61,104 nucleotides of DNA from contig DAIEQM010000044.1 in assembly GCA_027347685.1 (NCBI GenBank), forward strand, positions 1-61,104, in the 5' to 3' direction. Below the pieces are notes generated by a model that saw only the letters and a program-made list of their open reading frames with translations, was not told the origin of the DNA and did not search any database. The translations under genes and the position numbers were made by a program. Position 1 is the first letter of the stretch. Every line of letters begins with the position of its first letter. The stretch comes from Candidatus Woesebacteria bacterium (GTDB taxonomy: Bacteria > Patescibacteriota > Microgenomatia > UBA8517). Positions 19,897 through 56,115 of this stretch are shown one piece after another.

Positions 19897-20066
19897 AAAA
19901 TTCTCATTTTGTCTCACAATGAAAACGGAAGTTTAATCACCCAAAGGAGTTAGTTCTCATGATTTCATGGAAATTATGTGCGACCAAAGGAGCCTTCCGC
20001 ATTACATTCTCGCTATACTAGGAAGGGGGTGATCATTTATTCTATCGACTTTCCGTGAGGAGAGTC

Positions 20067-20096
20067 GGGCCGGGTTTAACTCACCCGGTTTTTTAT
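20067..20096 (+). terminator. Intrinsic terminator closing unit A
   Basis: CCGGGT-ttaactc-ACCCGG followed by TTTTTT. Confidence 0.55.
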
Positions 20097-20099
20097 TTA

Positions 20100-20128
20100 T
20101 TGACACAAAAGTGTGTACGAAGTATAAA
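20100..20128 (+). promoter_or_regulatory. Promoter P1: TTGACA-17 nt-TATAAA
   Basis: TTGACA at 20100-20105 and TATAAA at 20123-20128. Starts 4 nt after the preceding terminator. Confidence 0.5.
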
Positions 20129-20134
20129 AAAGTA

Positions 20135-20378
20135 CCGTACCACACGAAAGGAGCAAGAAGTGTATTCGATACTCCGTGGTCAGAGTGTGAAAGGGTGTAA
20201 GACGAACATTCGTCGTATGAAGCATCCTTTAGCTGTTTAATTTCATTTGCGCTGATAATCAAAAAATTAAATAGTTAAATTTTTGCGATGAAAGTCGCCC
20301 CAACTCACTCTGAAGGTGACTGTGAAGCCGTGAGCTTCCAAAAGCATTGGGCGAGGAAACACCTCGCCCTTTCATTTG
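20135..20378 (+). ncRNA. Unit B: roughly 245-nt promoter/terminator-delimited transcript (candidate sRNA or micro-ORF mRNA)
   Basis: Bounded by P1 and the hairpin GGGCGAGG-aaaca-CCTCGCCC plus TTTCATTT (20349-20378). Contains a GAAA-tetraloop hairpin GCGAT-GAAA-GTCGC and an SD-led 26-codon GTG ORF (20160..20240). Confidence 0.3.
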
Positions 20379-20415
20379 TCAAAAAATTGACAAACTATGA
20401 GTTGTTTGATATAGT
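20376..20415 (+). promoter_or_regulatory. Promoter P2: TTGACA-17 nt-TATAGT, with the -35 embedded in an 18-bp perfect palindrome
   Basis: TTGTCAA-AAAA-TTGACAA (20376-20393). -35 at 20387-20392 and -10 at 20410-20415. Confidence 0.5.
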
Positions 20416-20423
20416 ACCCACAT

Positions 20424-20469
20424 AGCTGTTGGTCTCAGGTGTTCCTGACGCCCACTGCTCGTTTTTTTT
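20424..20469 (+). terminator. Terminator/attenuator hairpin immediately downstream of P2
   Basis: AGCTGTTGG...(inner TCAGG-tgtt-CCTGA)...CCCACTGCT, followed by cg plus eight T (20462-20469). Begins about 2 nt after the predicted TSS. Confidence 0.5.
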
Positions 20470-20903
20470 CGCCAATTAACCGGTTTTTTTAGAAGGGACG
20501 GTCAATTTGAAAGATCACATTCCTATTTGGGGGCAAACCCTGCTTGAATCTTTTTATATTGCCAACTGTGCTGATCTGACCGCCGCCGTGCTGCCCGGGC
20601 GCCCTGTGTAGGGCCAACTCCCCGGCTTCGGCTGTAATTGACAAAGAACGTTTGGGCCGCTAAGTGGATTGCGGCCCTTACACTATCGATAAGTCTGATT
20701 AACAAGGGGGAACCCGATTTGATTTACCGGTATTCATAGCTATTTAACTTACGATTTTCGAGGGCTTTGTCCCAATTAACGCCTTGAGTGGCGCCTTAAT
20801 TGTTCGACCCCAGGTCGAACGTAGACAAATCTCGGGTATTTAAATTCTTGCAAAGTCGTGGCTTGACCACCGCTTTGAGCTGGAAGCCTCGGAAGAGTCG
20901 AAC

Positions 20904-20951
20904 AGGTCTGTTCATCCGTTTCCTGTATCAGGAACGAACAGACCTCTTTTT
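20904..20951 (+). terminator. Intrinsic terminator closing unit C
   Basis: AGGTCTGTTC...(inner TTCCTG-tat-CAGGAA)...GAACAGACCT followed by cTTTTT. Confidence 0.6.
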
Positions 20952-20962
20952 GTGCCTTATAG

Positions 20963-20991
20963 TTGACACATTATGGGTGGTATGCTATAGT
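20963..20991 (+). promoter_or_regulatory. Promoter P3: TTGACA-17 nt-TGcTATAGT
   Basis: -35 at 20963-20968 and extended -10 at 20983-20991. Starts 12 nt after the unit C terminator. Confidence 0.55.
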
Positions 20992-20997
20992 ATCTCC

Positions 20998-21311
20998 ACT
21001 TGACCGCAAAAGTGAACCGCGGCAGGTTTCTCTGGAGGGCTAATGCCCGACAAGAAAAAAGGACCTCATCGGGTCCCACATTAAGTAATCAGCCTCGGCT
21101 GATACATAAACCGAGTCGCGGATGCGACAAAAAATTTGTTATCCACCACAAAGTGGATGCATCGGAGGAAGGTCCTTAAATCAAGCTCTGGATAAGATCC
21201 GTTGACCTTAATCTTTGCCGAATGAGGTGAAGGTAAGTCAGTCAAGGCTCCATCTCAACGATTTTCCTTCCACCTGTACGTTCGAGCCGCTTCGATGAGC
21301 GGCTCTTTTTT
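20998..21311 (+). ncRNA. Unit D: roughly 315-nt structured transcript, unclassified
   Basis: Five consecutive short hairpins separated by A-rich linkers: GGGC-taat-GCCC 21037-21048; GGACC/GGTCC 21061-21076; ATCAGC-ctcg-GCTGAT 21088-21103; GTCGC-ggat-GCGAC 21115-21128; ATCCAC-cacaaa-GTGGAT 21141-21158. Possible long-range pairing of GGAGGAAGG (21164-21172) with CCTTCCACC (21266-21274). No ORF longer than 13 codons with a start signal. Confidence 0.35.
21284..21311 (+). terminator. Intrinsic terminator closing unit D
   Basis: GAGCCGCT-tcgatg-AGCGGCTC followed by TTTTTT. The U-tract is on the plus strand only. Confidence 0.6.
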
Positions 21312-25764: not shown

Positions 25765-26967
25765 TTAGAATATTACCCATCCAAAAATATTTATCCAAAC
25801 TACTCCCCAGAGGTTTACGATTACTCCTAATAAGAGGAGAATCCAGTGAATTTTTTTTAGTCCCATCTTCTCTACCCCTAATGCGGTCAGTAAAATAAGA
25901 AACGGATAAAAATCAATTGCGAACCGATATCCAAATTGAGCAAAGCCGTTACTTCCATGTGCCAGTACAAACAGAAAGATCGGAAGTATCGCAGCCCACA
26001 GGTACTGAACGAGTTTCCTTTTGATCGGAGCAAAAAATGCAAATATAAATGCGGGGGTGGTAATCCAGATTGATAATCCATTCCAACTGGGTTCAATAAA
26101 CGGTTTTTCATTTAGTATTTTTGGGAAACTCCAAAATGCTGTTTGCAAGTTTCGAGGGATATATATGACGTTTTCAATTCCATTTGAAAACCATGGTTCG
26201 TCAAAAACCCCAGGAATCAAAAGATATCCTTTGTCCCAAATGACTCCAAATCTCATGAAGTTATACGCAAAGCCAATGAAACCCATGATAAGCAGTCCTA
26301 CCCCAAACGAAACATATCGTTGTTTTTTTCCAGAAAGTAAATACAAAAAAACCGGAATTGAGAAAATGGTGTGAACCCGCGATAAATAAGCGGCGCCGAG
26401 ACAGAGTCCAACCAAAAATGCTTTCTTACTGGTCGATAGGTATATGGCCAAAAACAGAAAGAAAACTGCAGTAAGTTGCCCTAAATACCAGCTCGAGCCT
26501 ACAGACGCTTCAAACCACATAATGGTACCCACTGCGGTGAGAATGGCAGTCCAAAGTGGTGTTTTAGAGTGTTCTTTTGAGAACTTTTGAGCAATACGAT
26601 ATGACAACACGACGCTACCTGCGGCAAGGGTGTGTGCAATAATTTGTTGAGGAAATGAAACTCCAAAAATAAGCACGAACGGAATTGCAACGATGGCAGG
26701 CATAGGGGAATAGGGAACGTACCATCGGTTTAATCCTGCAGGAATCAATTCTGATAGCCACGAAGGGCTTTCGGTTATGTATAATCTGCCGTGTATGAGC
26801 GCGTCTGCTAACCGTGTAAAATAGTCGTATGGGGTGTTACCACCACTCGTTATGAAAAAAATTAAAAAGCACACGAAAAAAATAACCACCGGAGAATTGA
26901 AGCGAAAACTGCTTATTTTGTTTTTAGGATCCTTTATCATTCGATTTTTTTTGGCTTTTAACGGCAC
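25765..26967 (-). CDS. GT-C-like polytopic membrane glycosyltransferase
   Basis: 400 aa with at least 10 TM helices. First loop is TPYDYFTRLADALIHGRLYI. Start is uncertain (GTG 26967, ATG 26940 or GTG 26889). Confidence 0.55.
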   Translation of the reverse strand: MPLKAKKNRMIKDPKNKISSFRFNSPVVIFFVCFLIFFITSGGNTPYDYFTRLADALIHGRLYITESPSWLSELIPAGLNRWYVPYSPMPAIVAIPFVLIFGVSFPQQIIAHTLAAGSVVLSYRIAQKFSKEHSKTPLWTAILTAVGTIMWFEASVGSSWYLGQLTAVFFLFLAIYLSTSKKAFLVGLCLGAAYLSRVHTIFSIPVFLYLLSGKKQRYVSFGVGLLIMGFIGFAYNFMRFGVIWDKGYLLIPGVFDEPWFSNGIENVIYIPRNLQTAFWSFPKILNEKPFIEPSWNGLSIWITTPAFIFAFFAPIKRKLVQYLWAAILPIFLFVLAHGSNGFAQFGYRFAIDFYPFLILLTALGVEKMGLKKIHWILLLLGVIVNLWGVVWINIFGWVIF

Positions 26968-29314
26968 CTTATCTCTCGATCAGAATACCTTTATTGCGTG
27001 GGGTCATCAAATTGCTGAGAGCGGCTTTAAAACATTTTACAATAGCTGGAGTGACTATTTACCAGGCTATTTATATATTTTGGGATTTCTCGCAAAAATT
27101 GAAACAATCATTCCACTTCCTCAAGTGCTCCTCTATAAGCTCCCTGCAATACTCTTTGATATAGCATCGGGATTTTTGGTGTACAAAATATTGCGTCCTC
27201 AGGGAACGCGAAAGGCGCTTTTCGGTGCTTCCCTTATTCTTTTGAACCCCGCTGTTCTTTCAAACTCAACACTGTGGGGGCAGGTTGATAGTATATCTTT
27301 TTTCTTTCCACTTCTGAGCATTTATTTACTTCCAGAGTCACCATTATTGTCTGGAATGGCGCTTGGTTTTGGTGCCTTGGTAAAACCTCAAGCCGTACTT
27401 GCTGCTCCAATCATTTTGTATCTTTTTTGGAAACGAAAAGAAAAATTCTCACACATGGCGATACTGGTCACAACTGCTGCACTCGTGTTTTTTGGAGGGT
27501 TTATTCCGTTTTTGAATCATGGAAATATCATTTCATTTGCACTGGAGCGACTTAATGTAACAATATCTCAGTATCCCTATGGATCGGTGAATGCGTTCAA
27601 TTTTTGGGGGTTGTGGGGTTTTTGGCAAGCAGAGTCGGCTGGTTTTTTGTCTGAGAAAAATGTTGGACTTTTATTGTTTGTCATAGCTTCAGTTGTTGCG
27701 TTTTTAAAGTTTCCCAAAGAAAAGAAGGAATACTGGCTCCTCTTTGTTTTTTACGCAGCGAACTTTTTGTTTTTCACCCGCATGCACGAACGGCATTTTC
27801 TTCCTGCAATTATGTCACTTGCAGTTTTGACTCCACTCTTCCCCGTGTTAAGTTTTTTCCTACTGATTATTTCAGCCATGTATCTATTCAATATGTATTA
27901 TGCATATGTCTGGATTACTGAAAATTTTAGAGAAGTGTTCTCACATGAATTAATCACCCTCTTTATTTTGTTGAACATCGTGAGTTTTGTGTGTATTTAT
28001 TTTTATGCTTTTTTTGAAAAACTGTTTCAGAATGTATTGACATTTTTAATGAGTAAAACAATTGTGAAAGATACGCTTTCGTTTGTTTCACTCTTTTATT
28101 CGCAAAAAGAAAAGAAACTTCCAGAAACGCTTTCACTGACAACAAAGCAAACTCTTCTGTCTGGTATTCTGTTGTTTGCACTGATCACCAGACTTGTCGG
28201 CTTAGGTGCGCCTGATCATGAATATTTTGATGAGGTGTATCATGCGTTCACCGCGAAAGTAATGCTTCATGATGATCCGAAGGCTTGGGAATGGTGGAAT
28301 CCCAACCCTGAAGGATTTGCGTATGAATGGACACACCCTCCTGTTGCAAAAGAAGTGATGGCCCTTTCTATGAGAGTATTGGGAGAGAATTCATTTGCAT
28401 ATCGCTTTCCAGCGGCCATGTTAGGAGTTGGTGCTGTTTTTCTTTTGTATAAAGTTGCGTCTCATTTGTTTAATGAAGAAGTTGGTCTTTTATCAAGTTT
28501 TGTCTTTAGTCTTGATGGACTTTTCTTAGTCATGAGTAGAATCGGAATGAACGACATGTATGTTGTGTTTTTGATTTTGCTTACCCTTTTACTTTTCTTG
28601 AAAAACAAGCATTTTCTTGGAGGATTGAGTCTCGGACTTGCTGCGGCTTCTAAGTGGACTACTCTTTGGTTTGTTCCAGTTCTCATTCTGGCATTTTTAC
28701 TCCTCAAAAAACGTTTTAAATTTTCGCTTCTTTGGTTTGTGATTTTGCCACCATTGGTATATGTCGCCACTTATATCCCCATGTTTGTTTCAGGCCATGG
28801 ATTTGATATTTTTTGGGGGATGCAGGAGCAAATGTGGTGGTATCACACAAGACTCGTGGCCACTCATCCGTATAGTTCTCGTTGGTGGACGTGGCCGTTA
28901 CTCCTCCGACCAATTTGGGTATATACGAGCGGGGAGACAAACGGATTTGTTTCTAATATTTATGGCATGGGGAATCCTCTGGTGTTTTGGGGAGGACTGG
29001 TGTCAGCGCTTATTAGTTTAAAATATATTTTTATTGAGAAAAGAAAACACTTGCTTTTGGTTTTAGGTGCATATCTTGGCCTTTTTATGCCCTGGGCCTT
29101 AAGCCCGCGCATTATGTTTTTTTACCATTACTTTCCTGCTGTCCCATTTCTCTCAATACTCATAGGGTTTGTGTTATACAAAAACAAAAAAGCAGTGCTT
29201 CCTTTTTTAGCACTCACACTCGTTCTATTTATATACTTCTATCCTCATTGGGCAGGACTTTCTGTGCCAGTGTGGCTCGACCACTCATATTATTGGCTCC
29301 CTGGGTGGAGGTAA
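26834..29314 (+). CDS. Fusion of two GT-C modules: N-terminal DUF2029/GT87-like plus C-terminal GT39 (PMT-type protein O-mannosyltransferase-like)
   Basis: The N-half has a TM helix followed by the DQNTFIAWGHQIAESGF...SDYLPGYLYILG loop. The C-half has DHEYFDEVYHAFTAKVML...WTHPPVAKEVMAL...GMNDMY, typical of phospholipid-carrier-dependent GT39 enzymes, with a C-terminal 4-TM extension. Start could be GTG 26834, ATG 26852 or TTG 26897. Confidence 0.7.
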   Translation: MLPPLVMKKIKKHTKKITTGELKRKLLILFLGSFIIRFFLAFNGTLSLDQNTFIAWGHQIAESGFKTFYNSWSDYLPGYLYILGFLAKIETIIPLPQVLLYKLPAILFDIASGFLVYKILRPQGTRKALFGASLILLNPAVLSNSTLWGQVDSISFFFPLLSIYLLPESPLLSGMALGFGALVKPQAVLAAPIILYLFWKRKEKFSHMAILVTTAALVFFGGFIPFLNHGNIISFALERLNVTISQYPYGSVNAFNFWGLWGFWQAESAGFLSEKNVGLLLFVIASVVAFLKFPKEKKEYWLLFVFYAANFLFFTRMHERHFLPAIMSLAVLTPLFPVLSFFLLIISAMYLFNMYYAYVWITENFREVFSHELITLFILLNIVSFVCIYFYAFFEKLFQNVLTFLMSKTIVKDTLSFVSLFYSQKEKKLPETLSLTTKQTLLSGILLFALITRLVGLGAPDHEYFDEVYHAFTAKVMLHDDPKAWEWWNPNPEGFAYEWTHPPVAKEVMALSMRVLGENSFAYRFPAAMLGVGAVFLLYKVASHLFNEEVGLLSSFVFSLDGLFLVMSRIGMNDMYVVFLILLTLLLFLKNKHFLGGLSLGLAAASKWTTLWFVPVLILAFLLLKKRFKFSLLWFVILPPLVYVATYIPMFVSGHGFDIFWGMQEQMWWYHTRLVATHPYSSRWWTWPLLLRPIWVYTSGETNGFVSNIYGMGNPLVFWGGLVSALISLKYIFIEKRKHLLLVLGAYLGLFMPWALSPRIMFFYHYFPAVPFLSILIGFVLYKNKKAVLPFLALTLVLFIYFYPHWAGLSVPVWLDHSYYWLPGWR

Positions 29315-29615: not shown

Positions 29616-29644
29616 AAAGGCATCTTGTGGATAGAGATGCCTTT
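29616..29644. terminator. Bidirectional hairpin between convergent genes
   Basis: AAAGGCATCT-tgtggatag-AGATGCCTTT. Confidence 0.55.
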
Positions 29645-30993
29645 TATAGTGCAACGACTATTGCAATTATAGTAAGGAGTGCTCCTCCCAATATAAGTCC
29701 TATCGTTGGAAGCCCAACACCTGCACTCGGAAGGGTTACTGGTGTAGGCGAAGTATTAGTATTTGTTCCTCCTACGTTTCCTGTTGCAGTCGCTCTTGGA
29801 GTACCTGTGCCACCAGTTTGACAGGTTGCGCTTCCCGTATTGGTCGCAATACGACATCTCTTGTCTACACCAGTGATAAAGCAGGTGTATTGAGATCCGA
29901 TGGTTAAACATTCGGCGTTACTACTACAGACACTATTACATTCAAACGAATTATGTGGCGTGGGTGATGTGGTTTGTGGAATATTACATTCTTGTCTATC
30001 TGGGAAAGCAGACAGTCGGCAGGTAGAGGTCGGTGGATAGCAGGTATAACTGGAGTCGATTGCTTTGCAGGTTGCATCGGTTGAACACTGTTTGTTACAT
30101 GCCACTTGTGGTGTAGAAGTCGGAGTTGTTGTCGGTGTAGCGGTTGGAGTACTTGTTGCTCCAAGAGTAAAGTTCAAACTACACATGTTGGGAAGTGGAG
30201 TCGTTGTTGGTGTTCCGGTTGGACTGCTGGTTGGTGAACCGGTAGGAGTTGTAGATGGTGACGTGGTTGGACTTCCTGTCGGTGTTGCGCAGTTTTGTGG
30301 CTCAACGACGTACCCAATATCTCTTCCATTACAGGTAAAGTCGAGCTGCCATGTTAAACACACTGCCCCCAAACCTTTTGTTAATGTCTCGTTCGGTTGA
30401 AGGGTGACATCACCACTGGTATTATGACAACTCGACATTGCAGGCCTGCCAATATTCTCTTGTCGATTTTCACAGTCGAGCAGCCAGTGAACCGTTATTG
30501 GACTACTCGTCGTATTTCTGGTGGTAAAGCTTGGTGTCGAATTCCAATTTCCCGAATCAGGCCCCGTTTGAAGTCCTGCACAGGCCGGTTGGTTGTTGTA
30601 GGATCCACTCTGTTGGCAATCTAAGCTCCCCACAACCTTCCAGTCGAAATTTCCGCTAATCGGCACATCAACATGGCCGATGATAGTTTTGGGAGATCGT
30701 GGCCCAAATCCGGGAACATCAAATGTCCCTACTTTTGCGCCATCAATTAAAACATCCGCTTTTTGAGCAGGTTCAGTTCTATCTGATGCATTTTCGATAC
30801 TGACATCTCCAGTTTGACTCACTCCAAAAGAGTAGGTAGTACAATCCCATGCAAAGAGTTTTGATTGGGGAGCATTCGGGGCAACAGCCTGTCCTCTCAG
30901 TTGGTAGAGTCTTAGAGACGTAAATATCCCCACACCCGCTAGCACAAATGTAGTTCCTATAATGAGTGATGTAATAATGTTTTTCTTGCGCAT
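29644..30993 (-). CDS. Cys-rich surface protein with Thr/Pro linkers and a C-terminal LPSAG-plus-TM sorting-like signal
   Basis: N-terminal signal anchor and about 24 Cys. TP-rich linkers (TPTGSPTTSPSTTPTGSPTSSPTGTPTTTP; TSTPTATPTTTPTSTP). Two 6-Cys modules. C-terminus is LPSAG plus a 24-residue hydrophobic tail. Confidence 0.7.
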   Translation of the reverse strand: MRKKNIITSLIIGTTFVLAGVGIFTSLRLYQLRGQAVAPNAPQSKLFAWDCTTYSFGVSQTGDVSIENASDRTEPAQKADVLIDGAKVGTFDVPGFGPRSPKTIIGHVDVPISGNFDWKVVGSLDCQQSGSYNNQPACAGLQTGPDSGNWNSTPSFTTRNTTSSPITVHWLLDCENRQENIGRPAMSSCHNTSGDVTLQPNETLTKGLGAVCLTWQLDFTCNGRDIGYVVEPQNCATPTGSPTTSPSTTPTGSPTSSPTGTPTTTPLPNMCSLNFTLGATSTPTATPTTTPTSTPQVACNKQCSTDATCKAIDSSYTCYPPTSTCRLSAFPDRQECNIPQTTSPTPHNSFECNSVCSSNAECLTIGSQYTCFITGVDKRCRIATNTGSATCQTGGTGTPRATATGNVGGTNTNTSPTPVTLPSAGVGLPTIGLILGGALLTIIAIVVAL

Positions 30994-31000
30994 AAAATAA

Positions 31001-31777
31001 TTAATACCAAGTTCCGTCTGATCCCTTTAGCTGAGCTGTTATTTCAAAATCTTTCACTCCGGTTGGAATTGTGTAACTATCATAATAGTTATTGTTCGAA
31101 TCCTTTAATGTTGATGCAGGTAAAAGCGATCCGTTCACCGTAAACCGCACGGAGGTGTAGTTGGTGACAGCACCTGAGCCAACTGCTACGAGTCGTATTT
31201 TTGATCCAGCAGTGAGTGAGGAAAGTTGACTCGCGGTATAAGCTGTAGACCCATCCTCAGAATACGCTTTTATATTTTGACACTGATAACTGGTTCCCGT
31301 TATTTCAATCCTACCCGCGTTCGAACAATCTGAAGTGCCATTTATTTGCCAAGAAAATGTGGATGTGGGCACCGTTACTGTCCCCAGTGTTTGCGATCCG
31401 CCGGCAGGGAGCGCTGGTACGTCAAAGGTGTGTACTAATTGGTTATTCACAAACACGTCAGCTCTCTGAAGCGGTTCTGCCGAAGAAGAATTGTTCGTCA
31501 CAATAACACTGCCGTTTGCAGTTAGCGAAAAGGTATAGGCACCGCAATTCCAGGCATTCGATTTAAACAGTACCGGACGCGCGATAAGTATAAATCCGGA
31601 GAGCGTCGTGATCGTGAGAATAATAACAGCAATAATGGCAAAGAGCGCCTTTTTGTTTCGTCGTGGTGGAAGTGCGGAACTACCTGACATGGTACCCATT
31701 TCTGGTGTTAGACCACTGGTGACGGTTGATTGAGGCATTACCACATTGGGTGTGGATGGAATGGTGGGCGGGTTCAT
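31001..31777 (-). CDS. Secreted/membrane-anchored protein sharing the N-terminal domain of 29644..30993
   Basis: TM anchor (ALFAIIAVIILTITTLSGFILIA). AWNCGAYTF...EPLQRADVFV...HTFDVP...DCSNAG aligns with AWDCTTYSF...EPAQKADVLI...GTFDVP...DCQQSG of the downstream protein. Confidence 0.6.
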   Translation of the reverse strand: MNPPTIPSTPNVVMPQSTVTSGLTPEMGTMSGSSALPPRRNKKALFAIIAVIILTITTLSGFILIARPVLFKSNAWNCGAYTFSLTANGSVIVTNNSSSAEPLQRADVFVNNQLVHTFDVPALPAGGSQTLGTVTVPTSTFSWQINGTSDCSNAGRIEITGTSYQCQNIKAYSEDGSTAYTASQLSSLTAGSKIRLVAVGSGAVTNYTSVRFTVNGSLLPASTLKDSNNNYYDSYTIPTGVKDFEITAQLKGSDGTWY

Positions 31778-31783
31778 AAGTAG

Positions 31784-33169
31784 TTATTGTTTGAGCGAAC
31801 TATTTAAATAGATACCAGAAATAAGGAGTGCAATACCTGTTGAAATAAAGGCGAGCGTTGCAAACGGACTTCCTGCAACAGGAAGAGCTGAAGGTGTTGC
31901 TGTTTTAACAGGAGCAATGGTTGGTGAGGCACTTGCTGTTGGAATAGCTGTCGGCTTCACTGTCGGTGCAAGTGTTGGGGCAACTGTTGGTGCGATCGTA
32001 GGTGCAACGGTAGGCTTTGCTGTTGGTTTTGCAGTAGGCGCAAGAGTTCCAGATGGGGTGGATACAAATGCCGGTTCCTGGGCATTTGCAACAATGGTAA
32101 ATGTTTTGGTAATTGTTTGCAGAACTCCTTGAGCATTTTTCCAGGTAATGGTGAGCGTATGTGAACCTTCTTCAAGATTTGTGGGAGGGCTCCATTTCCA
32201 CGATCCGTCTGACGCGACTGTTACGTTTTGCGTAATAGGTGTGGATGAATGAACCGTTACCGTAATACTGGTGTTTTTAGGGCCATCTCCAAAAAACTCT
32301 GGAGTTGTTGTGTATATCGTTTCACCATTGTCGATACTTTTCACTGTCACAGTGCTTGAAGCAGGGAGTGGTGTTGCCGATGTGTTTAAATCAAAACGAG
32401 ACTTTGTTTCAGTGGTCGTGTTTGAGTTTGGCAAAATAACAGAAGATTGTGGGTCATTTGTCGTAGTCGTTTGGGTACTCGTTCTAAAATCATATGTTTT
32501 ACCCAAGGTGATAGAAGGAACCGGATTAGCTGAACCTAAATATACTTGTGCGGTAGCAACTCCAGTAGTTCCTGCTTGAACAAAAATAGTAAGAAGCGTG
32601 TCTTTTGCACTTTCTGCTACAGGGAGCGCGAGTATCCAGTTTCCTGAAGAAGAGGTGATCGTAGATTGCTCTGTCATTCCAGGCGCGTCTATATACACGA
32701 TAGCGTCAGAGGCGGGAAGCCCAGTCGGCAGGAGAATAGTTCCTGATACATGCGAGACGTCTGCAGAAATGGAAGGAGCAGTGGTGGTGTTCCACGGAAT
32801 GCCATTATTGGTAACATCAGTTCCCCCAGAATTAATTGTGAAATAGTATGCTTTGTTTTTCGTTAGGTTCCGAACTGTTGCAGAATGGGTAAGGCTCGTT
32901 TTTGCAGCTCCTCCTTCAGGTGTTACTGTCTGACCAAGGTTTGAAGTCTCTCCCCATTTCACAAGCCCAGTTGTTTGTTTGTCGGTAACCCAATTTACGG
33001 TAAAGGAACCATCGGTAATATTAGTAATTCGAACATCTTTCGGAGTAGTGTCAGGGCTTGCTCCGAGTTTGAAGATCGTATCTTTGTTTACCAATACCAC
33101 ACCACCAGCAAGACCAAAGACTAAAACAATTACTCCAATGAGGGTTGGTATTTTTTTGTTGTTATTCAT
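31784..33169 (-). CDS. Multi-domain surface protein (FN3-like, CarboxypepD_reg-like, Ig-like) with Ala/Pro/Thr linker and LPVAG-plus-TM sorting-like signal
   Basis: Signal anchor. FN3-like segment PKDVRITNITDGSFTVNWVTDKQTTGLVKWG...YYFTI. Ig-like segment TVTVHSS...SDGSWKWSP...GSHTLTITW. Linker APTAKPTAKPTVAPTIAPTVAPTLAPTVKPT. C-terminus is LPVAG plus a hydrophobic helix and Lys. Confidence 0.7.
   Translation of the reverse strand: MNNNKKIPTLIGVIVLVFGLAGGVVLVNKDTIFKLGASPDTTPKDVRITNITDGSFTVNWVTDKQTTGLVKWGETSNLGQTVTPEGGAAKTSLTHSATVRNLTKNKAYYFTINSGGTDVTNNGIPWNTTTAPSISADVSHVSGTILLPTGLPASDAIVYIDAPGMTEQSTITSSSGNWILALPVAESAKDTLLTIFVQAGTTGVATAQVYLGSANPVPSITLGKTYDFRTSTQTTTTNDPQSSVILPNSNTTTETKSRFDLNTSATPLPASSTVTVKSIDNGETIYTTTPEFFGDGPKNTSITVTVHSSTPITQNVTVASDGSWKWSPPTNLEEGSHTLTITWKNAQGVLQTITKTFTIVANAQEPAFVSTPSGTLAPTAKPTAKPTVAPTIAPTVAPTLAPTVKPTAIPTASASPTIAPVKTATPSALPVAGSPFATLAFISTGIALLISGIYLNSSLKQ
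31886..32044 (-). repeat. Degenerate short tandem repeat encoding an (A/V/K)PT(x) linker
   Basis: The plus strand shows reiterated ggtg/ctgt-tgg-type units. The protein is LAPTAKPTAKPTVAPTIAPTVAPTLAPTVKPTAIPTASASPTIAP. Confidence 0.6.
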
Positions 33170-33174
33170 ATATA

Positions 33175-33390
33175 TTATTGTCCTCCTTCAAAATATACCC
33201 TATTTGTAAGCTTGTCTAAAAGGGCCGCATCGAGATGTGGATCAACTGGTGCCAGTATTTCAGCTGAAACAGAGGGGGCTGGCTTTTCAGTAAACGCTCG
33301 ATATACATCAAAACTAATCCAAACAAACGACGTAATGAGTGTTAGAATCGCGAATTTTACGAGAAATGGTGCTTGTTTTTTTGATTTCAT
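33175..33390 (-). CDS. Small bitopic membrane protein (hypothetical)
   Basis: 71 aa from MKSKKQAPFLVKFAILTLITSFVWISF. Start trimmed to ATG 33390, which abuts the upstream stop. Confidence 0.45.
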   Translation of the reverse strand: MKSKKQAPFLVKFAILTLITSFVWISFDVYRAFTEKPAPSVSAEILAPVDPHLDAALLDKLTNRVYFEGGQ

Positions 33391-34028
33391 GGTGTGGGTG
33401 TAACTGGAACAATTGGCCAATAAGGAATTTCTCCAGAAACAGACAAGTACAGTTGTGATGAACCCGTGTTTGATTCGTCGATCGAAAGTGCGCTGGTCAA
33501 AACGCCTATCGGTCTTCTCAGATTTTCAATATCTTTTAACGTTGCCAATAGATTTGAATAGGCACCATTAAACGTAACACTAAATGGTATTTTTTGCTCG
33601 GCATCACCCACTCCTGCCGCCACAACGTCAATGGGAATATTTCCCGTGCTCATGGTAAAGATGGTGACATTGTGTGCCGATGAGATAACTTCAATTTGCT
33701 TAACATATGAACCAATTGTTGGTTCTGAGGGAATTGCCGTATCAAGAAGCGCAATTTTGTCGCTGTTTTGGGTAAAAAGATCTTGTGCGGAAATGAGGTT
33801 TGCTATCTTTGTATCCATGGTACTAATCGTCTGCTTTTTCTCAGAAATTTCAGTAGTAAGTCCGCCAATTGTGATGAGTGTTGGACGGATTGCAAAAACG
33901 CTAAACAGAAAAACAGCGGCTGAGGTGAGAAGCATTTCGATAAACATGCGAATATCGGATCTATCACGATAGGTCGTTGCAAGTTGGGCGATATATTTTC
34001 GATAGAGTTGGGTGTTTGACTGTCTCAT
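33387..34028 (-). CDS. PilO-like bitopic membrane protein
   Basis: Cytoplasmic N-terminus, one TM helix (LLTSAAVFLFSVFAI), a coiled-coil segment and a C-terminal alpha/beta region. Positioned directly after the PilN-like gene. Confidence 0.5.
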   Translation of the reverse strand: MRQSNTQLYRKYIAQLATTYRDRSDIRMFIEMLLTSAAVFLFSVFAIRPTLITIGGLTTEISEKKQTISTMDTKIANLISAQDLFTQNSDKIALLDTAIPSEPTIGSYVKQIEVISSAHNVTIFTMSTGNIPIDVVAAGVGDAEQKIPFSVTFNGAYSNLLATLKDIENLRRPIGVLTSALSIDESNTGSSQLYLSVSGEIPYWPIVPVTPTP

Positions 34029-34032
34029 GACA

Positions 34033-34581
34033 TTAATTTAGATTGACACGTAAAATTGCTTGAATTAATTCGCTGTTTGGTACTGCCTCAACACTGACCA
34101 CGTTCATTTGTGTAAAAGGAGTTTCTTTTTTGAGTCGTGTTACAAACGAAAGTATGTTTTGCTCGTTTTTGCCAACGACAAGAACAGAAAAATCTGTCGC
34201 GCTGTAATCTATTTTAGTCAGTTGCAAGTCTGAAGAGAGGTTTTTTGTGACAAGTGAAACATAGTCACTAAATGGAGTTTTACTGTAGGCATAGGTATTA
34301 AATGTTGCGAGTCGTGCTTGTGCTCTCTTAAAATCATGTTCAAAAGGCAAATAACTTTGAATAAGCGCTTTCTTTTGATTTATCTCATCCGTTAAGTCTG
34401 CATTTTTACTATCAAGGAAGAATCGAGACAAGAATCCCACAATAACCACTAATTCAACCGTAACTACTAAAAACCTGAAACTCCCCAGAAGCCACGTAAT
34501 AATACGGTTTTTAAGAGAAGCATCTGCTTCATCAGTCGGAAGCAAATTTATGGCTGGTGTTTTTCGCTTTAGGGCAGGCAT
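34033..34581 (-). CDS. PilN-like bitopic membrane protein
   Basis: N-terminal INLLP motif (KTPAINLLPTDE), one TM helix, then a coiled coil. This is the PilN family layout. Confidence 0.6.
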   Translation of the reverse strand: MPALKRKTPAINLLPTDEADASLKNRIITWLLGSFRFLVVTVELVVIVGFLSRFFLDSKNADLTDEINQKKALIQSYLPFEHDFKRAQARLATFNTYAYSKTPFSDYVSLVTKNLSSDLQLTKIDYSATDFSVLVVGKNEQNILSFVTRLKKETPFTQMNVVSVEAVPNSELIQAILRVNLN

Positions 34582-34603
34582 AGAAAGGGTACAGGACTAT
34601 TTC

Positions 34604-34612
34604 ATCATAGCA
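34604..34612 (-). promoter_or_regulatory. Extended -10 TGcTATGAT upstream of the PilN-like operon
   Basis: The minus strand reads TGcTATGAT, 22 nt upstream of ATG 34581. Confidence 0.4.
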
Positions 34613-34651
34613 AAAAAACGAAGCGTGTGAACAGTAATGAAATTAACGGAG

Positions 34652-34894
34652 TTATGCCTTCGAAGAAAGAAGCTTTGAAAATGCACTTTTGATGTGTGCC
34701 GCCTTGTTTGCATGAATTATTTTATTTTTCTTAGCACGGTCTGTAAGAGAAAACACTACTGAAACATTTTTCAAAGTTGGCGACTTTTTAGCTGTTTTTT
34801 GTGCAATCTCGATTCGTTTTTTGAGAGTTTCATTAACGGTAAGTTTCCGTGCTGAAACGCGGAGTGCTCTTTTTGCTGTTTTTGTTACTGGCAT
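34652..34894 (-). CDS. rpsT: 30S ribosomal protein S20
   Basis: MPVTKTAKRALRVSARKLTVNE...HANKAAHIKS. Start trimmed to ATG 34894. Confidence 0.9.
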   Translation of the reverse strand: MPVTKTAKRALRVSARKLTVNETLKKRIEIAQKTAKKSPTLKNVSVVFSLTDRAKKNKIIHANKAAHIKSAFSKLLSSKA

Positions 34895-34900
34895 AATTAG

Positions 34901-34906
34901 ATTGTA
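34901..34906 (-). promoter_or_regulatory. -10 TACAAT, 6 nt upstream of the rpsT ATG (leaderless-type)
   Basis: The minus strand reads TACAATctaattATG. Confidence 0.45.
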
Positions 34907-35010
34907 ATTGGGTTTAATGGTAATTGCGAATAAACGCATTTTCCACATGCAAGTATACAGCGGTGCAGGTAGAATATCAATAATCGGCTGAACTCTTATG
35001 AGTAACATCT

Positions 35011-53583: not shown

Positions 53584-56115
53584 ATGAGTATGGAAAATAG
53601 CCTGGATCCAGTCGCCTTGTTTCGTCAGAGAGAAGAGAAACGTGCTCAAAATAACCCCAATGCAAATGTTGATGAGCGAGTAGAGCAAGATATTATTCGC
53701 GAAATTCGCGATGGCAACGGCTCTCTTGAACAAAAACAGAATTTGTACAACCAATTGTCCCCAGAAGCAAAGAGATCTACTCCTATCTCCCCAGAACTTA
53801 AAAATTCTTTGCAACCGAGCCAGGAGCAACTTCAAAAACAAAGAGATGCTCTCATGGAATCCATGTGGTCAAACCCAACGCATGATACACAAGACGCTAT
53901 TACAAAAATTGACAGAGAACTTGAGAATCGTTTTGCTGTTGATCCGTTGTATAAAAGACTTGGGAAGGATGACCCAAATCTTCTCAATGCGCGACGCGAA
54001 AAATTGGTATCAAAAATGCTATCGGAACCCGACGAAGCCACTCAAACTGAAATTAGAGACATTGATGAAAAGCTGAAAAAAATAAATTCACCCAAACCAA
54101 CAGAATCTCAAGATCAGTCCGTAGCCACACCAGAAGCCGTTAAAAATGAATTACCTCTTCCCCCAGAATGGGATTTACTTGAGGAAGACGATGAAGAGGA
54201 AATAAACATTACAGGAGTGTTAAAAGACATTCACGAATCTGATAAATTACCAGTTAATGAGGAATCTAAAACCCCTCTTTCTGTGGATGAGGCTATAAAA
54301 TATTTTGCGAGTGAGCAGCCGCGGCTTCTGAAGTTAGTTCGTGATTTTAGGGAGTCACACTTAATAAATTCGAATACAAGAGATGATATTCAAGATCAAA
54401 TAGACTCTGCTCGAAGACAATTAGATAACTATCGCAAAAGTGGACTGATATTTGAAAACAAATCTAAAGATTCAAACAAAGGATATACTTTTGTGGACTT
54501 TATGCTCCAGCAGGAAAAGTTAATTAAACTCGCCGAAGAAAGTTTGGGACAACGTGCCTCGAAAAAAGGGACTCTTATAACAAGAACTGATCCTGAGTTT
54601 TTTGCTGAATTTGATCGCGTAGAGGAAGAAATGACCGAGGACTTTAGAGAACTCCACCCAGAATTTCAAAGTAAAAATTCAGAAGTTAAAAGCTCAGAAG
54701 AAGATAAAAAACCAGAAACACCTCTCCGATTTAGTGACGGCAAAGAAGTTGATAGTCTCAAAGCTCCGCTTGAAGACGATGAGCCCCATATTGTGGTATC
54801 CAATGATAGTTCTCCTAAAGAGCAACCAAAGCCGAGACGTTTTTCTGCTATCAGAAATATATTTGCAAACATTACCTCAAAAAACCGATCTACTACACCA
54901 CCTCCAGTACCAGTCTTAACAGACAATCCTCCGAGTGCTGAGACTCCTATTTCTCAGATACAACCTCTTGAACAGGCAATTTTCCCAGAGACCCCACCGC
55001 CACCTGAAATTGATGCTTTGTCTGAAGAAGTCACCGTTGAATCGAGTTCATCTGCAAATCAAGAATTAGCTTATGAGTCTCATTTAAACGAGAATATTGA
55101 TCAGGAAATTGCCGAAGTAGATCAGCTGAGTGACAAAGAAGTTGTTGAGCGCATCGTTCCTGAGATGTCGTCGTATCACGACTATGACGATTTGCCTAAA
55201 GCGAGCGAAGTTCATTCAGAAAAGGAGCTTATCCATGCGCTTGTCTCTCATGCGAACTTTATTCAAACAATGTTTAACGAAAAAGCTGTAGATAAATCGA
55301 ACTATGGTGAGGTGTTAGCACAACGGAAAGATATTTCACAAAAAGAAATAGAATTTTTGTATGAACCCAATATTTATCATCTTATTTCGAATGGCGTTTT
55401 TAACCCAGCACTCTCGACCTATCATCGAAATTATATTTCTGCTCTATATATACCAGATGGTACTGACGGTAATTTGTCGGATCAGAATAGTGGTATGTTG
55501 CATGTTGATATCTCACATAAGTCTTCAGATGAACGTGTGCTTCTGAGATCAGAAATAAATGGGGGATACACTTTCTCGCTTGATCCAACGTTCAACGCAT
55601 CGCTACGTACAGCTGAGAATGATATTCAGGACGTTGAACCTGAAACTACTGTGCCGGCATCACAGATTACAAATGAAGCTCCTTCTGCAGTTTCATCTGA
55701 GTTGCAGGACGGAACAAAGAACGAAGGAGGAAGTGAGGAAGCAGCACAATTGAGCGCTGAAAATTTAACTGAGCAAATCGAGAATCGTATCAATCAAACT
55801 AACCAAACATTGGATGATTTTAGGAGCGCACTTCAAAATGTGACTGACGCAAATGAGTTAAATCGGATTAAGTTACAATTTGCTAATCTTATTCAGGGAG
55901 AAATTAATCAGGTTGACCAATTTAGGCAGGGGCAAGAATATCGAACGCTTAATATGGATCAACAATCACTGTTGTCCGGCTACCGGATGATGCAAAAAGA
56001 TCTTGCAAAATTATCTTCTCGGTTAGGAGGCCCGGGAGATGTCACTTATGAAATGACAGAATATTTGAAAGATATTGAATACAATAAAGATCTTATCCAA
56101 AAACTGACAAAATAA
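53584..56115 (+). CDS. Large acidic, low-complexity/coiled-coil orphan protein (843 aa)
   Basis: Continuous ORF with no TM helix or signal peptide. Glu/Asp/Gln/Ser/Pro-rich. Internal repeat QRDALMESMWSNPTHDTQDAITKIDRELENRF versus RREKLVSKMLSEPDEATQTEIRDIDEKLKKI. Confidence 0.6.
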   Translation: MSMENSLDPVALFRQREEKRAQNNPNANVDERVEQDIIREIRDGNGSLEQKQNLYNQLSPEAKRSTPISPELKNSLQPSQEQLQKQRDALMESMWSNPTHDTQDAITKIDRELENRFAVDPLYKRLGKDDPNLLNARREKLVSKMLSEPDEATQTEIRDIDEKLKKINSPKPTESQDQSVATPEAVKNELPLPPEWDLLEEDDEEEINITGVLKDIHESDKLPVNEESKTPLSVDEAIKYFASEQPRLLKLVRDFRESHLINSNTRDDIQDQIDSARRQLDNYRKSGLIFENKSKDSNKGYTFVDFMLQQEKLIKLAEESLGQRASKKGTLITRTDPEFFAEFDRVEEEMTEDFRELHPEFQSKNSEVKSSEEDKKPETPLRFSDGKEVDSLKAPLEDDEPHIVVSNDSSPKEQPKPRRFSAIRNIFANITSKNRSTTPPPVPVLTDNPPSAETPISQIQPLEQAIFPETPPPPEIDALSEEVTVESSSSANQELAYESHLNENIDQEIAEVDQLSDKEVVERIVPEMSSYHDYDDLPKASEVHSEKELIHALVSHANFIQTMFNEKAVDKSNYGEVLAQRKDISQKEIEFLYEPNIYHLISNGVFNPALSTYHRNYISALYIPDGTDGNLSDQNSGMLHVDISHKSSDERVLLRSEINGGYTFSLDPTFNASLRTAENDIQDVEPETTVPASQITNEAPSAVSSELQDGTKNEGGSEEAAQLSAENLTEQIENRINQTNQTLDDFRSALQNVTDANELNRIKLQFANLIQGEINQVDQFRQGQEYRTLNMDQQSLLSGYRMMQKDLAKLSSRLGGPGDVTYEMTEYLKDIEYNKDLIQKLTK

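Follow-up and report, generated by a model that had tools for sequence, protein, structure and literature searches.

The locus described here raises the question of what a pair of genes for PilN-like and PilO-like proteins is doing in one operon with genes for surface proteins that end in sortase-type signals. It lies in a stretch of 61,104 nucleotides (nt) from Candidatus Woesebacteria bacterium (assembly GCA_027347685.1, contig DAIEQM010000044.1), referred to below as the window, or the 61-kb window, in which six closely packed genes, g1 to g6, run in the same direction on the minus strand between positions 29644 and 34581. Type IV pili are believed to have a central part in host attachment and DNA uptake in the Candidate Phyla Radiation (CPR; Patescibacteria). 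The reading that we favour, with a little more confidence than doubt, is that the operon supplies PilN and PilO as a membrane sub-complex of the type IV pilus (T4P) machine of this lineage, together with a lineage-specific wall-anchoring pair, g3 and g4, and a set of variable surface proteins; PilM, the ATPases, the platform protein, the peptidase and the pilins of the same machine would be encoded elsewhere in the genome. A preliminary description of this DNA had placed six tightly packed open reading frames (ORFs) on the minus strand here, which the ORF list and the gene junctions bear out, and had seen in them an apparatus that matches no described system. The latter claim was overstated, given that the canonical PilM-binding motif INLLP is kept invariantly, and the likeliest reading of the locus is a detached piece of the usual pilus machinery, a new apparatus being unlikely.

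The product of g1 has the layout of PilN, with a cytoplasmic N-terminus that carries AINLLP at residues 10-15, one transmembrane segment (27-58), a long helix or coiled coil and a C-terminal ferredoxin-like domain. Its score against the Pfam PilN family (PF05137/IPR007813) is 18.4 bits (cut-off 22.8), and PF05137 is carried, according to precomputed matches, by most of its 34 database homologues (36-61% identity), some of which bear the name PilN in NCBI or JGI. A profile of g1 orthologues matched PilN of Myxococcus xanthus (3jc8_N) with an E-value of 0.008. Residues N12, L13, L14 and P15 are invariant (15/15 and 31/31 aligned homologues), and the transmembrane and juxtamembrane segment beside INLLP forms a long invariant stretch across the clade. 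The AlphaFold2 model of g1, with a predicted local distance difference test score (pLDDT) of 79, has helices at 23-59 and 63-99 followed by a beta-beta-alpha-beta-beta order of elements; its top Foldseek matches are the GspL (5hl8), XcpY, PilO (2rjz, 5uvr), PulM and EpsL periplasmic domains, with target-normalised TM-scores of up to 0.75. By these profile and model matches, g1 is assigned as a true PilN with a GspL/PilO-type fold. PilM is known to bind the N-terminal INLLP peptide of PilN (Karuppiah and Derrick 2011). The invariance of INLLP argues that PilN and PilO of this lineage still work with PilM, and hence that a type IV filament machine is encoded elsewhere.

The second gene, g2, encodes a protein with one transmembrane segment (26-48), a coiled coil and a C-terminal alpha/beta domain, which scores 18 bits against Pfam PilO (PF04350/IPR007445; cut-off 22). 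A profile built from 18 g2 orthologues and compared with PDB sequences matched PilO of M. xanthus (3jc8_O) with an E-value of 2.7e-8 over profile positions 79-204, and matched PilO of Pseudomonas aeruginosa more weakly; the M. xanthus match spans the C-terminal globular domain and so extends beyond the coiled coil alone. Pfam PilO is matched by 13 of the 18 orthologues at 0.01 or better (best 1.6e-8), and g2 is assigned, on this evidence, as a true PilO. The PilN-like and PilO-like assignments of the preliminary description thus hold in profile tests for both proteins and, for g1, in the fold test.

The pair does not stand by itself in related genomes. We compared 30 related loci from Woesebacteria and Microgenomates, which are ultra-small bacteria. 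They were obtained from the contexts of PilN homologues, from GTDB species representatives scanned with the PilN alignment, which contributed 18 loci under the titles Ca. Woesebacteria, Microgenomates group or Patescibacteria group, and from the contexts of distant g4 homologues. Each was read as 10 kb either side of a known protein, some of the source contigs being 942, 926 and 750 kb long. The layout that recurs in the 30 loci is a dnaK operon, an oppositely oriented murJ, rpsT, pilN, pilO, a gene for a small protein, g4, further surface-protein genes (zero to six, depending on the locus) and a convergent gene of the PMT type (GT-C, protein O-mannosyltransferase-like). In all 30 loci pilO lies directly downstream of pilN, and a small protein follows pilO directly in every locus reaching that far. 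Of the 27 loci of sufficient reach, 26 have the pilN-pilO-g3-g4 core, with PilN identity going down to about 30%; it is kept where the outer flanks have changed (L025, L027), and in L030 it is all there is, with the PMT gene directly after g4. Every inspected context of a g4 homologue has it after pilN, pilO and the small protein. Because it is conserved in 30 related loci, the arrangement is more than chance. The six-gene order that had been proposed is therefore conserved as to its first four genes, and g5 and g6 are variable.

The third gene of this core, g3, encodes a small bitopic protein with a basic N-terminus, a transmembrane segment with an invariant Trp and a conserved extracytoplasmic peptide of about 35 residues (EIL.P..P.LD...L..L); it has no match in Pfam or NCBIfam. 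Proteins in the g3 position of the related loci have 66-122 amino acids, are likewise bitopic and lack a Cys lipobox. Identification of g3 as PilP was considered and rejected, as there is no lipobox Cys and only the peptide of about 35 residues lies past the transmembrane segment, so that the protein is PilP-like in gene position alone.

The fourth gene, g4, encodes a protein with a hydrophobic segment at either end. An N-terminal transmembrane helix (8-27) is followed by three beta-sandwich domains (about 44-129, FN3-like; 139-227; and 283-359, Big_13), a disordered linker rich in Pro and Thr (366-426), the motif LPVAG, a C-terminal transmembrane segment and a Lys-containing tail. The N-terminal hydrophobic segment comprises 21 residues without a clear AxA site and is apparently an uncleaved membrane anchor. 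In the AlphaFold2 model the three beta-sandwich domains have pLDDT values above 90, and a C-terminal helix follows the linker. Of the FN3, CarboxypepD_reg-like and Ig-like domains that had been proposed for this protein, Big_13 stands with 37.7 bits (cut-off 27). Pur_ac_phosph_N (29.4, cut-off 30) and fn3 (20.3, cut-off 25) remain below threshold in the window protein and are carried, like Big_13, by its homologues. CarboxypepD_reg is not detected in g4 by Pfam, and its family PF13620 occurs in about a quarter of the homologues. The g4 family gave 155 matches, nearly all of 420-475 amino acids with full-length coverage, and an exhaustive profile search yielded about 80 full-length clusters at 50% identity (420-477 amino acids) among the top 150; the total of that search, 3225 at E <= 1e-30, overstates the size of the family because giant Big_13-repeat adhesins dominate the matches. 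Identification of g4 as the secretin PilQ was rejected, since neither a secretin domain (PF00263) nor N0/N1 is present and Pfam shows fn3/Pur_ac_phosph_N and Big_13 only.

About 110 of 120 g4 homologues end in [LIVQT]Px[STA]G, xLTPT, some 20 hydrophobic residues and usually a K/R tail; close relatives of the window have LPxAG, and the forms LPPTG, VPETG, LPATG, IPDSG and VPDSG occur elsewhere. The LPxAG motif with its transmembrane segment, noticed earlier in the window protein, is accordingly found to be a conserved LPXTG-like signal in more than 100 homologues. By pattern, the C-terminus of g4 is an LPXTG-type sorting signal, for which processing by a sortase is predicted. An exosortase-type signal (PEP-CTERM or VPDSG-CTERM), suggested by the IPDSG and VPDSG variants, was rejected for want of an NCBIfam match. 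Class III (prepilin) signals at the N-termini of g4, g5 and g6 were rejected as well on inspection, as these sequences (KKIPTLIG and others) have neither G at -1 nor E at +5.

The last two genes belong to the variable part of the operon. The preliminary description had called the 258-residue protein anchored and the 449-residue protein Cys-rich with LPSAG, and both statements are confirmed. The former, g5, has one transmembrane segment (41-71), an N-terminus rich in Pro, Ser and Thr, a domain of about 80 residues with the pattern W-x-C...D-C and a C-terminal beta domain that ends in ...GTWY; it is without a sorting signal and has a weak Pfam match to CARDB. The latter, g6, contains 21 Cys, an N-terminal transmembrane segment with a conserved juxtamembrane motif (RLYQL..VAPNAP), Pro/Thr linkers and two Cys-knot-like repeats, and its C-terminus consists of LPSAG and a hydrophobic segment with no charged tail; compared with protein families and PDB sequences, it found no match. 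The domain of about 80 residues is common to both proteins (40% identity, E 4e-17). Between loci, g5 and g6 differ in number, length and presence, and the g5-type proteins of relatives range from 201 to 545 amino acids with varying Cys content.

A pair of g5-type and g6-type genes nevertheless recurs downstream of g4 in several loci (L001, L004, L007, L009, L011, L016, L017, L023, L026). The beta domain of the g5-type proteins ends exactly in ...G-x-W-[YF], and the g6-type proteins hold 7-39 Cys, LPxAG and an uncharged hydrophobic end. The C-terminal signals of the g4 and g6 classes differ consistently, a possible sign that there are two routes of processing or two different sortases. In L007 a second g5/g6 pair lies past the PMT gene, outside the operon. 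In L004 (16708-18699 and 18750-20066), and also in L006, two neighbouring surface-protein genes have identical C-terminal parts of about 130 residues (a Cys-knot module, a Pro/Thr linker and an LPNAG signal) and different N-terminal parts; this suggests a recent duplication or recombination among variable cargo genes.

The junctions between the six genes (Table 1) are those of a compact unit. The gap between g1 and g2 is 4 nt, the stop codon of g2 and the start codon of g3 overlap as ATGA, and the gaps g3/g4, g4/g5 and g5/g6 measure 5, 6 and 7 nt; GGAGG stands upstream of g4. In many relatives the g2/g3 and g3/g4 junctions are overlaps of -4 or -1 nt, and pilN-pilO is probably translationally coupled to g3 and g4. 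A consensus scan found the promoter-like site upstream of g1 with 10 of 12 matches and the TG of an extended -10. Such sites are at chance level in the region (11 found, 10.4 expected from shuffled sequence). The TTTGCTATGATG block is kept in five of six aligned rpsT-pilN spacers from relatives with PilN identity down to about 43%, and this conserved block is read as a phylogenetic footprint. The extended -10 reported previously is thus present, with a footprint in five of the six relatives' spacers. The hairpin after g6 has a folding energy of -12.6 kcal/mol (z -3.95; none of 200 shuffles equally stable). The conserved -10 footprint upstream and the strong hairpin downstream give good sequence support to the prediction that g1-g6 are transcribed as one unit, which has a promoter and a terminator of its own. 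Rfam and tRNA scans of the operon gave nothing. Upstream of g1 lies rpsT, as had been described. Its mechanical ORF (34652-35008, minus strand, 118 amino acids) is too long compared with homologues of 77-107 amino acids, and the start is probably the ATG at 34893 (MPVTKTAKRALR...).

Table 1. Genes of the operon and candidate transcription signals, with positions in the window.
Feature	Length (amino acids)	Position	Strand	Basis or remark
g1 (pilN)	182	34033-34581	-	ORF list
g2 (pilO)	213	33387-34028	-	ORF list
g3	71, from ATG	33175-33390	-	mechanical ORF from TTG extends to 33420
g4	461	31784-33169	-	ORF list
g5	258	31001-31777	-	ORF list
g6	449	29644-30993	-	ORF list
Promoter-like site		34604..34631	-	TTCACA, 16 nt, extended -10 TGcTATGAT (34604-34612), within the 70-nt rpsT-pilN spacer
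Terminator-like hairpin		29616..29644	-	10-bp stem, 9-nt loop; begins inside the g6 stop codon

Starting from the gene identities, the architecture and the conservation demonstrated above, we propose a series of steps by which the products of the operon may act together. By homology, the INLLP N-terminus of PilN would bind a cytoplasmic PilM, and PilN would pair with PilO via their coiled coils and ferredoxin-like domains. The two lineage-specific genes that follow, g3 and g4, occupy the positions of the PilP and PilQ genes in the pilMNOPQ, comABCDE and mshIJKL operons of diderms. The N-terminal helix of g4 would remain in the membrane, and its C-terminus, once cut at LPxAG in the manner of a sortase substrate, would be joined to peptidoglycan; the two fixed ends would be separated by three rigid domains and an extended linker of about 60 residues. 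The small protein g3 may couple g4 to PilN/O, and the two may tie or align the PilN/O ring to the wall. In a monoderm they would thus stand in for PilP/PilQ/TsaP, or for the additional C-terminal portion that PilO has in Firmicutes. This would be a version, divided between genes, of two published ideas, namely wall anchoring of the machine by the oversized PilO of Firmicutes (PMC6916266) and by a PilO-LysM fusion in Chloroflexota (PMC13319060). The g5-type and g6-type genes would encode variable surface proteins carried on the same transcript, some of them with sortase-type signals, and the Pro/Thr-rich linkers are plausible substrates of the convergent PMT-type glycosyltransferase. A functional link between PMT and the operon is plausible because the long Pro/Thr/Ser linkers of the operon proteins are typical targets of O-glycosylation.

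The strongest form of this proposal, that pilN-pilO-g3-g4 is an undescribed monoderm means of fixing the T4P machine to the wall, which replaces PilP/PilQ/TsaP in CPR bacteria, we put forward tentatively, as a possibility that we doubt rather more than we believe. Among the papers searched, none describes a module of pilN, pilO, a small protein and an LPXTG protein. The products of g1 and g2 belong to the known PilN and PilO families and g3 and g4 fall outside PilP, PilQ and TsaP; what appears to be new here is a conserved pilNO operon, detached from a pil locus, with novel companions that are predicted to be wall-linked.

Comparison with described systems shows how much of the locus is familiar. 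In the PilM-N-O-P-Q assembly of type IVa pili (T4aP; P. aeruginosa, M. xanthus 3JC8, Thermus thermophilus), PilN likewise combines INLLP with a transmembrane segment, coiled coil and ferredoxin-like domain, PilO agrees in topology, and adjacent N and O genes are followed by one for a small protein and then one for a large envelope protein. The present operon differs in that rpsT and not pilM lies upstream and that the organism is a monoderm-type CPR bacterium; its small protein is a bitopic transmembrane protein, whereas PilP is a lipoprotein with a beta-sandwich domain, and its large protein is a membrane-anchored, LPXTG-type protein of three Ig/FN3 domains in place of a secretin. Monoderm T4aP systems (Streptococcus sanguinis, Clostridium) resemble it in having no secretin or PilP and in having a PilMNO assembly sub-complex, and there the crossing of the wall or anchoring in it has been attributed, speculatively, to an extra module on that sub-complex (PMC6916266). 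In those bacteria, however, a large PilO provides the module as an extension at its C-terminus, and the pil locus includes pilMNO, whereas here PilO has the canonical size, g3 and g4 are separate genes for the candidate wall-linking functions, and the operon is detached from a pil locus.

Among CPR bacteria, the T4P loci of the saccharibacterium TM7x (pilM-pilN-pilO-unnamed gene-pilB-pilT-pilC) show similar machinery with weakly scoring PilN and PilO (TXSScan E about 1e-5); in T4P locus 1 an unnamed gene, TM7x_00430, stands between pilO1 (TM7x_00425) and pilB1 (TM7x_00435). Unlike the genes of the window, those of TM7x adjoin the genes for PilM, ATPases and pilins, and no FN3/Big_13 LPXTG protein has been reported there. 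In Litorilinea aerophila (Chloroflexota), homologues of PilN and PilO(-LysM) beside an archaellum cluster have been proposed to provide a link to peptidoglycan (PMC13319060). That pair resembles the present one in lacking PilM, PilP and PilQ nearby, but there the wall link is a LysM domain joined to PilO, with an archaellum as partner, whereas here a separate sortase-type protein would form that link and no filament genes are nearby. The type II secretion system's GspL-GspM-GspC part is similar in fold, the C-terminal domain of g1 being closest to the periplasmic domains of GspL/XcpY, PulM and EpsL; in contrast to that system, a GspL cytoplasmic domain, GspC, GspD, GspE and GspF are absent here, and INLLP is a feature of PilN. 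Lastly, the sortase-anchored LPXTG surface proteins of Gram-positive bacteria, which are MSCRAMM-like proteins with Ig stalks, have in common with g4 the motif [LIV]Px[TSA]G at the C-terminus, followed by hydrophobic residues and in most cases by a basic tail, as well as Ig/FN3 domains in tandem and a linker rich in Pro and Thr that spans the wall. The proteins of the operon depart from these in that the motifs are mostly LPxAG, xPxSG and xPxTG, the g6 class has no charged tail, the N-terminal anchor is apparently uncleaved and the NCBIfam LPXTG model scores below threshold.

How a pilus machine is anchored in monoderm peptidoglycan, and how the pilus crosses it, is an acknowledged open question, for which wall anchoring by PilMNO has been proposed (PMC6916266). 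If the wall-fixing reading were true, the locus would offer a concrete, testable answer to how T4P are anchored and pass the wall where there is no outer membrane, and the co-encoding of canonical-size PilN and PilO with g3 and g4 across many species-level genomes is a genetic hint on wall anchoring. Otherwise the locus is a detached pilNO pair beside surface-protein genes, of value for annotation only.

Several results weigh against the reading that we favour. The absence of PilM, pilin, PilB/T/C and sortase genes from the operon, asserted in the preliminary description, is confirmed by Pfam and by the motif scan, and it extends well beyond the operon: PilM, PilB/T/C/D, pilins and sortase are found neither in the 61-kb window (Pfam on every sizeable ORF) nor within 10 kb of the operon at the 30 loci (Pfam lists), and regular expressions for the Walker A motif of T4P ATPases and the pilin motif GFTLIE matched in none of the six frames of the window and 27 loci. 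The NCBIfam model LPXTG_anchor (TIGR01167) gives 12.6-12.9 bits on the homologues, with a cut-off of 15.9, and nothing on the proteins of the window. No homology of g3 or g4 to PilP, PilQ or TsaP is detectable, and in the Foldseek search the g4 model found no PilP-, PilQ- or TsaP-like match and only generic tandem FN3/Ig stalks of adhesins and receptors. The single exception among the 27 loci, L022 (11192-12725), has pilN-pilO-g3 and a g5/g6-like pair with no g4, of which tblastn found no remnant. As the dnaK operon, murJ, rpsT and PMT are syntenic too, a conserved gene order says little by itself about a functional unit, and a mirror-tree and partial-correlation test among g1-g4, MurJ, S20 and PMT, which included non-orthologous weak matches in L003 and L022, gave no clear sign for or against co-evolution.

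Many of these results also speak for the alternative that survives best, which we nevertheless consider unlikely: that the operon is a mixed one, in which an ordinary pilN/pilO pair and g3-g6, encoding unrelated surface proteins anchored in the wall or the membrane (adhesins or envelope/S-layer-like proteins), merely have a common promoter because the genome is streamlined and little rearranged, the two halves being linked neither physically nor functionally. Synteny from the dnaK operon to PMT is clade-wide, and rpsT and murJ are equally conserved neighbours without a functional tie; the likeness of g4 to a generic adhesin stalk, the free variation of g5 and g6, the second pair outside the operon in L007, the retention of pilN-pilO-g3 without g4 in L022 and the lack of a clear co-evolution signal all agree with it. 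The core, however, survives where the outer flanks have changed (L025, L027, L030), start/stop overlaps join pilO, g3 and g4, no g4 homologue was met away from pilN-pilO in the inspected contexts, and g3 and g4 are constant in size and architecture, unlike the adhesin-like g5 and g6.

It is improbable, more so than the mixed operon, that the PilN/O-like scaffolds were co-opted for an apparatus other than a pilus, independent of PilM, which displays or organises sortase-substrate proteins for host attachment. We know of no mechanism by which PilN/O would act on sortase substrates, and the invariant INLLP with its adjacent transmembrane and juxtamembrane segment is hard to explain without PilM. 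In favour of such an apparatus are the lack of any T4P core gene in the 61 kb or within 10 kb at the 30 loci, the position of the operon among envelope genes (MurJ, PMT, LCP and FemAB) and the occurrence of PilN/PilO without PilM, PilP and PilQ next to the Chloroflexota archaellum (PMC13319060). The last case, and a complete Microgenomates genome whose single T4P locus has PilM, B, T, C, D and pilins without PilN/O (PMC7143001), also mean that the earlier statement that PilN/O are always accompanied by PilM does not strictly hold. On the other side, good conservation of PilM and of the core genes for T4P has been reported throughout Patescibacteria (PMC12206443, PMC6744442), as have an enrichment of T4P components, PilM/N/O among them, in the CPR and a near-ubiquitous sortase in Microgenomates (PMC6744442). 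Together with the invariant INLLP and the Microgenomates T4P locus that lists PilM without PilN/O, these reports indirectly favour a T4P cluster elsewhere of which the operon would be a dispersed part, a case that the preliminary description had named as a refutation of its own reading.

We give hardly any credence to the PilN/O-like pair being a scaffold for the biogenesis of the wall or of surface glycoproteins, tied to MurJ, PMT and LCP/FemAB and without a filament: a divergent murJ is invariant and a convergent PMT nearly so, and six of the 18 PilO orthologues have weak matches to the coiled coil of DivIC (septum initiator), but these are weaker and fewer than the PilO matches, which include the C-terminal globular domain, INLLP indicates PilM, and no role of the PilN/PilO family in cell-wall or glycoprotein biogenesis is known to us.

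Some features of the neighbourhood were noted in passing. The PMT-type gene of the window (26834-29314, plus strand) is convergent to the 3' end of the operon, and PMT occupies the equivalent position in L001, L002, L004, L007-L009, L011, L012, L014-L017, L019, L023, L026 and L028-L030. A second GT-C-like membrane protein of 400 amino acids (25765-26967), without a Pfam match, is conserved nearby; it was considered as a hidden PilM and rejected, being a multi-pass GT-C-like membrane protein. Between the UvrD/PD-(D/E)XK helicase gene and the FemAB genes, a region of about 1.4 kb (19900-21310) holds short ORFs only (86 amino acids or less) and has no Rfam or tRNA match. Between RNase J and FtsK, an 843-residue protein without a Pfam match (53584-56115, plus strand) is very acidic and of low complexity, rich in Glu, Asp, Ser, Pro and Asn. 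The GC skew of the whole window (2-kb bins, plus strand) is positive in most bins whatever the gene orientation, and the cumulative skew climbs near-monotonically to 1.28; a strand disparity of G and C of like kind has been described in related Microgenomates genomes of the order UBA1400 (PMC7143001).

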